NCBI RefSeq assembly: GCF_988242995.1
Contig: NZ_OZ547044.1
Direction: 5' to 3' (one strand)
DNA from: a plasmid
DNA length: 64,000 nt
Positions 45,901 to 48,900 of this stretch are shown here, in pieces (the first letter of the stretch is position 1; every line of letters starts with the position of its first letter). Made by a program: the position numbers.

Positions 45901-48900
45901 GACAGAGACGATAATGATGAAAAAAGAAACCCTTAACACGCTTATTCTGCGTCACGGCGACCGGATGCTGCGCCAGGCTGGCTGGCCCGACACTGTTGAT
46001 ATGGCGCCCGTCGCCCCCGAAACCGTACCCGGCTGGCTTGCCGCCTGCGGCTCTCTCAGTGGCGTGGAAATCCTCACGCTTACGGAACAGCTTTGTCAGC
46101 CGCTGACGTATGGCCGGGCAGCGTTGTTGCTCGCCAGCGCCCGGCGGCTGGCGGGAACCCCGGCTCGTCTGCATCTCTTTCCGGTGCAGGCATATCCGCA
46201 TCCGGAGCGGCTGGCTGACTGTCAGGTTATCCGCCTGCCTTACGCTCAGGAGTGGCTGACAGCGGCGGAATGTGACGATCTGCTGGCCTTCCTGAAAGCC
46301 TCCCTCACGCAGATATCGGAAATCGTCCACCGGGATACGAAGCGCATCGCCGCCGCGCTTACGCCGTCCGTCAATCCCCGTCTGATGGACAGGCGGATCG
46401 GTGACTGGCGCTTGCTGGCCGTGGAGTATGATCATGATAACTGCCTGGACGAAGACGAAACCGACAGGCTGGATCAGGTCCTCGATGCCATTCTGATTCG
46501 CGATGCGCGATTCTGCCCGGTCCTGCTCACCCTGGTTAACGAGCGGGAGGAAACTATCAGGAGCGCAGGGGTTATCGCTGATCAGCTGCGTTTTACGGAC
46601 ACTCCGGTCCGGCGCTGGTTTGATCGCCGGGTTTTAAGGGAAATGGTGAGGGAGGCCCGCGCCAGCAGAACTCAGGAGTGACAGCCCGGCGCATCAGGGG
46701 AGGGGACCCTCCCTTGTCAGCCTGCCGGCACAGGAGGTGTGGTGCGATAAGGATGTCGCCGTGCCGGCTCCGCGTCCACCCGGCCCGGTTTCCGGGCCTT
46801 TTGGGTGAACACAACCCTCTGTTATCGCCGTGCCGTGTGCTGGCTGTGCCGTGCCTTCACTTTAGCCCGGCAGCCGCAGAGGCTGGAGTTCGCTGGCGCC
46901 GCCATCCCCGGATAAGGCAGTCGCCGGCTTGCCGTTGCCGCCGGCTCCGCTTCACCCGGCCCCATCCCTCCGGTCCGAGGCCTTATTACTGCGTCTGTCG
47001 CGTTGCGACATCTGCTTCCGCTTTTCTCCCGGTGGTCGAAAAACGGGGGAGAGAAACCCTGTATTCAACCTCCTGCATCGCGACGGGTTGTGCCGTGCCT
47101 TCACTTTAGCCCGGCCGCTGCAGATGCAAGGGTGCGCTGACGCCGCCATCCTCGCCCGGTCGCAGGTTTTTTATGATGCTCGCCGTTCTTCCCGTCGTTT
47201 TCTCGCTCAGGTTTCGCTCGAAAACCGTCCAGACCAGCTTCGCGCTATATCTGCGCTGCGGCCTCCGGTGTCGCCCCTGCATCTTTCGCTTTTCGCCGGG
47301 CTGTCGTGTCGGCACGGCACAACCCGGTGCCGCAGTCTATGTGATTACGGAGGTTTATCCATGCAGTATGTGAATACATGCCCGGTCCTGAATGTTGAAG
47401 AGTGTGACCGCCTGTCTTTTATGCCGTACCTGTTCGGCACGGATTTCATGCTCGCGGAATTACAGGTGTACGCTCTGGCCAAAAAATGGATGCCCGGCTA
47501 TGAGGGCGGCTTCTGGCATTTTATTCGCCTGCCGGAGGGGGGCGGCTACATGATGCCGGATTGTGGCCGGGTACATCTGGTCAGTAGCGAAAACTGGTTT
47601 GATCGAACTGTCAGCGCCGACGCGGCGGGCATTATTCTGACCAGCCTGGCGATTAATCGCCGTCTGGCGGCCCATCATGACAGCAGTAACCCGGCGCTGA
47701 CTCGCCTTTATATGCTGCGTGATGCCCAGCTCTGGAATCACATCACCTTTCACCCCGAATGCAGTGCTATTTACGCCGCGCTGGACTGATTAACGACCGG
47801 GGCGGTTACACCGCCCCGCAGGGAGACAAAAATGACTTCATCAGTAACCGTTCCGGCCGTCTACGTGGGCACATATCACCAGTACAACGGCGGCAGTATT
47901 TTTGGCAAATGGTTTGATTTAACCGACTTCGACGACGAAGACGAATTTTATGACGCCTGCCGGGCGTTGCATGCCGCCGAGGATGACCCCGAGTTTATGT
48001 TTCAGGACTGGGAAGGGATCCCGTCTCAGTTTGCCTCTGAATCCTCTGTTAAGTGGGCGTTTATCGAGGCATTCCGGCAGGCGCAGGACGAAGGACGCGC
48101 TGCCGCGTTTGTGGCCTGGGCGGACTATACCGGCGAGTGCGACTATGACGCCTTTGATGAGGCGTATTGTGGCGGGGCTGAAAGCGAGGAGGATTTTGCT
48201 TATGGCTTTGTGGAGGATCACGGCCTGTTAAACGAGGTGCCTGAATCCCTGCGCGTCTATTTCGATTATGAGGCTTACGCGCGGGATCTGTTCAGCAGCG
48301 GCTATGTCTTCCATGAAGGCTATGTATTCAGCAACTGATTACTATCCGGCGGGGAAGCCCGCCGGTTAAGGAGAAAGCACATGAAACTTGCACCACAAAG
48401 CCGCGATATCCTGCGACAGTACAAAGCCCTGATTAATGCCCGCCGCCGCGATGCCGGTCAGCGGGAACTGACCACTGCGCAGGTGATGGATGAAATCTGC
48501 GAATACATGACCTGTCAGTGCGCCGTCTATATTGGCGGCCATTTCATTCTTCAGGGGGGAAAGGCACGATAAATCACAGGGCAGGGGGGAACCTCTGCCG
48601 CTTCCGGCCGCGCGAAAACCCGGGCAGGCTGCGCCTGCCGGAGAGAGACGTCGCCGCGCCTCCGGCGCCGCGCACTCTCCTCTCCGTTGTCAGTCGCTGT
48701 TGCCCCGGAATTCGCGTATTATCAGGGATATCTTCCTGTAAAGCAGACCGGTGAAGCATATGTCAAAGTGGAATATCGCCTCTTTTTCAAAGGAGGAGCA
48801 GGATAAAGTTGCCGTCGATAAGGTGGCTGCTGCTGTTGCCTGGCAGGAGCGCATGAACAAGCCCGTCGTGCCGGAACTTGTTGAACGGGAACAGCCTGAA

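Follow-up and report, generated by a model that had tools for sequence, protein, structure and literature searches.

A probable class 2 single-stranded DNA promoter upstream of klcA, accompanied by a truncated half-copy, in the leading region of a Klebsiella IncFII(K) plasmid

The 680-bp interval preceding klcA in the plasmid sequence analysed here (64,000 nucleotides of contig NZ_OZ547044.1, referred to below as the window) contains an element on the minus strand, at positions 47084-47326, that is very probably a single-stranded DNA (ssDNA) promoter of class 2 (ssp2 type), together with a partial copy of it that is likely to be an inert relic. The element is located upstream of klcA and oriented towards it, is homologous to hairpins already described in other plasmids, has a structure that is both conserved and covarying, and carries conserved promoter boxes. 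As a Klebsiella representative of the published class 2 (ssp2) family, it is unusual only in its half-copy relic.

Over the 851 bp tested, the window shows 100% identity to the leading regions of conjugative IncFII(K) plasmids from Klebsiella, for example pGSU10-3-2. In the plus-strand gene order of pGSU10-3-2, a DNA methylase gene is followed by two small genes, a yfdA-like hypothetical gene, the 680-bp gap, klcA and ardA, beyond which lie ssb, psiB, psiA and hok/sok; next come an SLT transglycosylase gene, encoded on the opposite strand, and traM. This order, with traM at its end, therefore places oriT just past the right end of the window. The polarity of F-type transfer is established and provides the basis for naming the transferred strand (T-strand): with oriT past the right end and every leading gene on the plus strand, the minus strand is both the T-strand and the template of these genes, klcA included. 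The ardA gene begins 42 nt after klcA and has no hairpin of its own, so the two genes are presumably cotranscribed. The gap (46682-47360) is bounded by an annotated hypothetical coding sequence ending at 46681 and by the start of klcA at 47361, and mostly nothing is annotated within it in thousands of related plasmid records. The open reading frames that it contains had no match in Pfam, in keeping with the preliminary description of the interval as non-coding, and the Rfam covariance models gave no match at E≤1 for the region from 46 to 47.4 kb.

Comparison of the gap with itself identified an exact 25-mer, GTGCCGTGCCTTCACTTTAGCCCGG, at 46846-46870 and 47090-47114, one base away from the two copies previously placed at about 46845 and 47089. 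A search allowing up to three mismatches returned no other match, 100 shuffles yielded 0 matches, and none of the matches to the 25-mer is expected by chance. The 25-mer lies within a 69-nt direct repeat (46842-46910 and 47086-47154; 86% identity, 244-nt spacing), which also contains the partial repeat gccgccatcc reported earlier. The duplication also involves part of the upstream flank, as seen from a second, short repeat at 46763-46786 and 46940-46963. Both units, beginning at 46746 and 46911, open with GATAAGG, and the remainder of the second flank consists of filler common to the pKPN-498-type and K. aerogenes plasmids. The direct repeats of the preliminary description were thus recovered, but the inverted repeat that defines the element had gone unnoticed, and the supposed repeat family is instead one complete hairpin and one truncated arm (Table 1). 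The reported lack of resemblance to the Frpo-like family was confirmed, as BLAST comparison of the gap with the four Frpo-like copies gave nothing at E≤0.01. Likewise, F Frpo/ssiD and ColIb-P9 ssi1-3 did not match 46682-47360, the only matches of known Frpo/ssi sequences to the window being at 49658-50033, 53043-53416, 60919-61235 and 63634-64000.

Table 1. Features of the klcA-ardA region, with positions in the window.
Feature	Position	Strand	Evidence or remark
Upstream flank, copy 1	46746..46841	+	Terminator scan: GC stem-loop 46782-46798, then TTTT
Repeat copy 1, truncated non-template arm only	46842..46910	-	Keeps -10-like TAAAGT (+46859-46864)
Upstream flank, copy 2 (longer)	46911..47083	+	46911-46965 repeats 46746-46800
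Repeat copy 2, non-template arm of complete hairpin	47084..47154	-	Paired in consensus structure
Apical domain of hairpin	47155..47254	-	Apical helices with compensatory changes
Template arm of hairpin	47255..47326	-	Inverted repeat, minus-strand fold, consensus pairs
Predicted mRNA leader, 47 nt	47314..47360	+	Sequence reading; Shine-Dalgarno GGAGG at 47349-47353
klcA, ArdB/KlcA-family antirestriction protein	47361..47789	+	Pfam PF03230, E=9e-28; annotation
ardA antirestriction gene	47832..48338	+	Pfam PF07275, E=4.5e-34

Repeat copy 2 forms one arm of an imperfect minus-strand hairpin of about 240 nt (47084-47326), the outer part of which is an inverted repeat pairing 47084-47115 with 47295-47326 (32 nt, 84% complementary, 179 nt apart). 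Folded as ssDNA, the gap had a predicted energy of -167.1 kcal/mol (z = -6.25) for the minus strand and -148.3 kcal/mol (z = -3.97) for the plus strand. This one hairpin, whose end is about 35 nt from the start codon of klcA, dominated the folds of both strands. A 330-nt segment of the T-strand folded at -75.3 kcal/mol, only just past the cutoff of -75 kcal/mol in 300-nt windows used in the published screen for large stem-loops (PMC12672017). Hairpins of the same size class were also observed elsewhere in the window, upstream of the methylase gene (44229-44456) and inside the Frpo-like copies.

We evaluated the conservation of the structure on an alignment of 22 distinct homologues in T-strand orientation. 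The consensus fold comprises 52 pairs, in which 95.1% of the cells are standard pairs, versus 32-41% in slid controls, in which the pairing partners were moved by 1-3 columns with the relatedness of the sequences retained. Changes on both sides (compensatory changes) were found in 24 of the 52 pairs, versus 3-11 in the slid controls, and the observed covariation score was reached by none of 500 shuffles. The 22 homologues represent few clades and the independent events are fewer than the compensatory cells, but the values for the slid controls are still far lower. The apical domain contains several conserved blocks (AAGCCGCAGC, CTGGACGGTT, GCGAA..TGAGC, AACGACGGGAAGA and GACCGGGTGA) made up of invariant columns of the alignment. 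The question of which strand folds was judged by the energy difference for each sequence: the T-strand hairpin was more stable than its complement in all 22 homologues, by a mean of 7.9 kcal/mol (DNA parameters). The count of G·T versus A·C cells (42 versus 6 for the T-strand) was discarded as a strand test, being circular: the fold of the complement gives 52 versus 3. A nhmmer profile of about 260 positions was built from the 22 hairpins, including the window sequence itself, and identified a single full-length element in the window, at 47082-47334 on the minus strand (E=3e-63, the window sequence being within the profile). No further class 2 element was found with this profile in the 64,000 nt.

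The function proposed for the hairpin rests on its homology to tested elements. BLAST comparison with pESBL-EA11 gave 68-69% identity over about 278 nt (E=1e-16 to 2e-17), with matches upstream of ardA (L136, 14044-14311) and upstream of klcA (7097-7362), and in F a match of about 68% was located upstream of the klcA homologue (L003, 12481-12726). Hairpins with 77-84% identity lie directly upstream of ardA in plasmids from Enterobacter, Yersinia pestis (pMT), Winslowiella, Cedecea and Citrobacter, and at least 5000 plasmid records match the hairpin. The homologues are always directly upstream of klcA or ardA and aimed at that gene, with a leader containing a Shine-Dalgarno sequence. A scan of contigs (298 Gb) with the degenerate core CSGGCTANNNTNNNGKCACGGC was too loose to be informative in itself, most of the at least 120 loci being chance matches in GC-rich genomes; the useful loci, after filtering with BLAST and nhmmer, were from Enterobacterales only (Citrobacter, Cedecea, Enterobacter sp. 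Ag1, Klebsiella sp., Kosakonia and others).

Three classes of ssDNA promoter have been defined in the IncI1 plasmid pESBL and in F (Nucleic Acids Res 2025 gkaf1299, PMC12672017): class 1 consists of Frpo and ssi1-3, class 2 of the hairpins 5' of klcA and ardA, which are similar to each other and unrelated to Frpo, and class 3 of the hairpin 5' of the M.EcoGIX methylase gene. 5' RACE mapped the starts of the class 2 promoters that drive klcA and ardA of pESBL, and these promoters have conserved counterparts in F (PMC12672017). In F, the class 2 promoter ssp2 drives yfgB, encoding an ArdB/KlcA protein, and its stem-loop stalls complementary-strand synthesis until UvrD resolves the hairpin (bioRxiv 10.64898/2026.01.09.698686). 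The suggestion in the preliminary description that the interval might be another type of single-strand promoter for the anti-restriction genes is supported by the homology to these class 2 promoters of pESBL and F.

The non-template arm reads, on the minus strand, CCCTTGCAT (containing a -35 box TTGCAT, +47129 to +47124), 15 nt, TAAAGT (-10 box, +47108 to +47103) and GAAGGCACGGCAC. The 25-mer thus runs from the end of the spacer through the -10 box into the start region of this arm. Invariant in the 22 homologues are CCCTT in the -35 block, three bases of the -10 box (T, A and the last T) and the GCACGGC motif, and the 15-nt spacer between the boxes is of constant length. The match to the sigma-70 consensus is nonetheless weak, with 3/6 positions in the -35 box, 4/6 in the -10 box and a spacer of 15 nt versus the usual length of about 17 nt. 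In the predicted structure, the -35 box is fully paired, its template side being +47277-47283. Internal loops contain the three inner bases of the -10 box and the next three bases downstream, and the template side of this box (+47302-47307) is partly mismatched. The spacer contains two internal loops, with 19 nt on the template side versus 15 nt on the non-template side. The boxes rebuilt in the stem point towards klcA. Placed about 7 nt past the -10 box, the start of transcription would be near +47314. A search for a conventional duplex sigma-70 promoter between 46300 and 47500 found none on either strand, which fits a promoter that would be off in double-stranded DNA.

A mechanism can be proposed by analogy with the class 2 promoters of pESBL and F. 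During conjugation, the T-strand would enter the recipient 5' to 3' from oriT, and the template of klcA would arrive before the template arm and the apical domain, with the non-template arm entering last. The hairpin of about 240 nt would then fold, and its lower stem would rebuild a sigma-70 promoter resembling a duplex, in which the -35 box (TTGCAT) is fully paired and the -10 box (TAAAGT) partly looped. RNA polymerase would start near the predicted site and read out of the hairpin into the still single-stranded klcA-ardA region, such that the anti-restriction proteins could be made before the complementary strand exists. In double-stranded DNA, the arms would lie apart, with no usable promoter, and expression would be expected to stop. 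We infer promoter activity of the hairpin in this plasmid, its start site and its off-state in duplex DNA from the homologues. By homology with F ssp2, the Klebsiella hairpin may also act as a roadblock, stalling complementary-strand synthesis until UvrD opens the hairpin.

Copy 1 retains a non-template arm only. In place of the invariant -35 block CCCTTGCAT it has ACTCCAGCC, and the partial nhmmer match at 46838-46906 (E=7e-7) covers only profile positions 188-255, corresponding to the non-template arm, with no accompanying template arm. In the predicted ensemble, the probability of pairing with the template arm was 0.997-1.0 for copy 2 and about 0 for copy 1. The flank at 46746-46841 is continuous with the arm of copy 1, as in F, IncI1 and Frpo'4 (70-78% identity). 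Flank and copy 1 together are closest to the lineage of F, IncI1 and Frpo'4, and the complete hairpin is closest to that of Enterobacter and Yersinia. In a K. pneumoniae IncFII plasmid (L133) whose gene order is the same, the gap measures 439 nt and comprises a single flank and a single complete hairpin, and a K. aerogenes plasmid (L134), again with this gene order, has a single copy in a gap of 503 nt and lacks 46787-46939. In pKPN-498-type plasmids, the hairpin and the long second flank form one unit, and before this unit lies a short sequence similar to the distal end of the arm. The two-copy form is the common one, found in at least 1675 records with 95-100% identity. This distribution suggests that copy 1 and its flank are a dead half-copy, generated by partial duplication or illegitimate recombination between two class 2 elements, and copy 1 is most likely inert. 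The stretch D3 (47015-47038 with 47283-47306, 79% identity) was considered as a degenerate template arm for the first unit and rejected: it is a short match in a region that aligns with the long flank native to pKPN-498-type plasmids, and the profile gives no template-arm signal there. On the T-strands of F and Frpo'4, stems of other sequence can be read in the flank, and they appear to be at the position equivalent to that of the terminator-like stem-loop at 46782-46798, suggesting that this stem-loop probably ends the upstream operon running from the methylase gene to the yfdA-like gene.

Several other interpretations were considered. The prospect of a functional copy 1, acting as an alternative partner of the template arm, as a second weak promoter or as a modulator of the roadblock, is raised by its retention in at least 1675 plasmids and by an arm that keeps the 25-mer exactly and is 80% complementary to the template arm. 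In this event, copy 1 might tune the element as a second pairing partner or as a landing site for RNA polymerase or SSB, altering the duration of the second-strand block, and the clinically dominant Klebsiella IncFII(K) plasmids would have a modified ssp2 and a different timing of anti-restriction. We consider both this function and this tuning very unlikely: the -35 block is destroyed, pairing with the template arm has a probability close to zero, copy 2 enters the recipient before copy 1, and close relatives lack copy 1. The plasmids that have it are 95-100% identical, such that its retention may reflect only recent common descent. It is highly improbable that the direct repeats serve a regulator of klcA and ardA as operator or iteron sites on double-stranded DNA, by analogy with ArdK/ArdR and the ard genes of pKM101. 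An exact 25-mer present twice upstream of anti-restriction genes would fit such sites, and ard promoters of IncN plasmids are regulated and have homologous control sequences (review PMC8744291), but most relatives (F, IncI1, pMT, L133 and pKPN-498) have a single copy, the 25-mer is part of both a 69-nt duplication and a 240-nt hairpin with covarying arms, and conservation tracks the pairing partners rather than a short motif.

The same dependence of conservation on base pairing, together with homologue indels that are not multiples of three, argues against an insertion sequence remnant or part of a coding gene, an explanation of the repeats that the preliminary description had already raised and that is barely credible. 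The sequence allows two open reading frames, one of 143 aa (46678-47109) and one of 286 aa (46929-47789) that would extend klcA upstream, and a few records annotate a "hypothetical protein" in the gap. However, the gap frames had no Pfam match, no transposase annotation was found under thousands of matches, and the intergenic position is the same in the F, IncI1 and IncFII(K) backbones. It is also distinctly unlikely that the element serves mainly as a single-strand initiation (priming) site for the complementary strand rather than as a gene promoter. In vitro, the class 1 element Frpo directs synthesis of a primer RNA; in vivo, strand conversion appears to be primed by Frpo transcripts, and any RNA started at the hairpin could in principle serve as a primer. 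However, early transcription-dependent conversion events in F were observed downstream of ssp1/Frpo; only about 4% of early conversion events took place at yfgB, a site downstream of ssp2 and upstream of ssp1b, versus 24-48% downstream of the ssp1 promoters, and ssp2 is described as a barrier to synthesis, not as an origin (bioRxiv 10.64898/2026.01.09.698686). Furthermore, the constant placement of the element directly upstream of klcA or ardA, aimed at a gene with a Shine-Dalgarno leader, speaks against a mainly priming role. Of the two options in the preliminary description, a single-strand promoter or a primase site, the promoter is therefore retained, and priming is less likely as the main role in view of the strand-conversion data for F.

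The genes downstream of the element, klcA (KlcA-HS) and ardA, help carbapenemase-bearing Klebsiella plasmids to escape type I restriction in new hosts. If the hairpin acts as an early switch for klcA and ardA, as its homologues do in F and IncI1, it would provide a defined cis-acting element with a possible effect on the establishment of pKpQIL-type plasmids. Single-strand promoters of three unrelated classes can occur together in one leading region, and the useful signature of such an element is a long inverted repeat on the transferred strand, not a direct repeat. Current understanding is unchanged, because the class was published in 2025-2026.

The element resembles the class 3 promoter (ssp3) in principle and size, and a homologue of this class is present in the window at 44244-44462, 2.6 kb upstream, but its sequence is unrelated to that of the hairpin upstream of klcA; F ssp3 is reported to have no roadblock activity (bioRxiv 10.64898/2026.01.09.698686). 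With class 1 (Frpo and ssi1-3; Masai and Arai 1997; ColIb-P9), it shares a long imperfect T-strand hairpin that rebuilds -35 and -10 boxes, and a predicted role in driving leading-region genes before the second strand is made. In contrast, there is no detectable sequence similarity between the two, the boxes are different, and the hairpin has no AT-rich region such as that of class 1. Three of the candidates of Samuel et al., Frpo'4, Frpo*1 and Frpo*3 (Nature 2024, Supplementary Table 2, PMC11541004; insect-gut metagenome element OFEI01000013.1), contain the core ...CCCTTGCAT-15 nt-TAAGAT...GGAGTCACGGCAC... and have 72-78% identity over parts of the gap, and Frpo'4 is also similar in its upstream flank. 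They differ in their host element and in having been listed as Frpo-like on structural grounds, with no separate class.

The closest known systems are class 2 of pESBL and ssp2 of F. The identity is just 68-69%; here, one hairpin precedes klcA and ardA together, and the Klebsiella element has an extra truncated arm and flank upstream. Its predicted core is also weaker than that of F ssp2 (-55.2 versus -67.6 kcal/mol, or about -55 versus -68 kcal/mol). These elements are nevertheless alike in their position in the leading region, in T-strand orientation, directly upstream of klcA or ardA, and in their architecture: a hairpin of about 240 nt, with a -35 block, a -10 box, a GGCACGGC core and a terminator-like upstream flank.

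Two class 2 hairpins (ssp2, the single-stranded promoters found 5' of klcA or ardA) were present in many related leading regions, including those of L006, L017, L020, L028 and L082. One member of the pair in L006, an Enterobacter cloacae plasmid, lies 5' of a yfdA-like gene and the other 5' of ardA. Paired hairpins of this kind provide substrates for the type of recombination that could have yielded the truncated arm, or half-copy, present in the window. Full-length class 2 hairpins of the enterobacterial plasmid type were also recovered from contigs labelled as Streptomyces morookaense DSM 40503 (L028 and L029) and from metagenome-assembled contigs of Oscillibacter and Oscillospiraceae, labelled as Firmicutes (L049 and L056); contamination with plasmid contigs, or their mis-binning, is the most likely explanation for all four.

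Coordinates of the hairpins, promoter copies and RNA matches in the window and in related plasmids
Feature	Replicon	Position	Strand	Details
Class 3-like hairpin	Window	44244-44462		Arms 44229-44262 and 44423-44456; just 5' of DNA methylase
GC-rich stem-loop	Window	46695-46716		9-bp stem, AGGGGAGGG-GACC-CTCCCTTG; directly 3' of yfdA-like stop codon
Class 1 (Frpo-type) copies	Window	49658-50033, 53043-53416, 60919-61235, 63634-64000
AS-pc01 ("Antisense to pHK01_035")	Window	50276-50372	minus	Rfam, 97.7 bits (gathering score 79)
sok antitoxin RNA	Window	58425-58598	plus	Rfam, 67.3 bits (gathering score 59)
Short class 2-like hairpin	F (L003)	8662-8739
Short class 2-like hairpin	IncI1 plasmid (L004)	10574-10651
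Short class 2-like hairpin	pESBL-EA11 (L136)	3277-3439
Two class 2 hairpins	E. cloacae plasmid (L006)	29-274 and 1190-1442

A shorter hairpin, absent from the 64,000-nt window, was identified in F, the IncI1 plasmid and pESBL-EA11. Both of its arms match the class 2 profile, the apical domain is absent, and it contains the motifs CACTTGCAT and GCCCGG..GGCACGGCC. It precedes a DUF1281 gene (yfaB) in the IncI1 plasmid and pESBL-EA11, and is located between sopB and the methylase region in F. The available text of PMC12672017 describes six promoter hairpins (ssi1-3, klcA, ardA and M.EcoGIX), none of them 5' of yfaB. Comparable short forms were observed at Cedecea, Xenorhabdus, Kosakonia and Phytobacter loci.

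The stem-loop following the yfdA-like gene might serve as another terminator or contribute to stability. On visual comparison, a stem of different sequence (GGGGGAGGGGAAACTCCCCC) seems to stand at the corresponding place in L133, a single-copy Klebsiella pneumoniae relative. The sok match agrees with the annotation of a hok-family toxin in the leading region. The AS-pc01 match is on the T-strand and antisense to the leading-region genes, and is located just 3' of one of the class 1 copies.

The third kind of long hairpin in the window is located just 5' of the methylase, whose annotated start is at ~44509, and its predicted fold is more stable on the T-strand (-81.1 kcal/mol) than on the complement (-75.0 kcal/mol). 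It displays 85-86% identity to the methylase-upstream segments of F, the IncI1 plasmid and pESBL-EA11 and corresponds to the published class 3 ssDNA promoter (ssp3). The match for the class 1 copy at ~61 kb is split into two pieces, its middle being missing or diverged. All four class 1 copies were 93-99% identical to the Serratia candidate Frpo'1 of Samuel et al. and ~68% identical to F ssiD.
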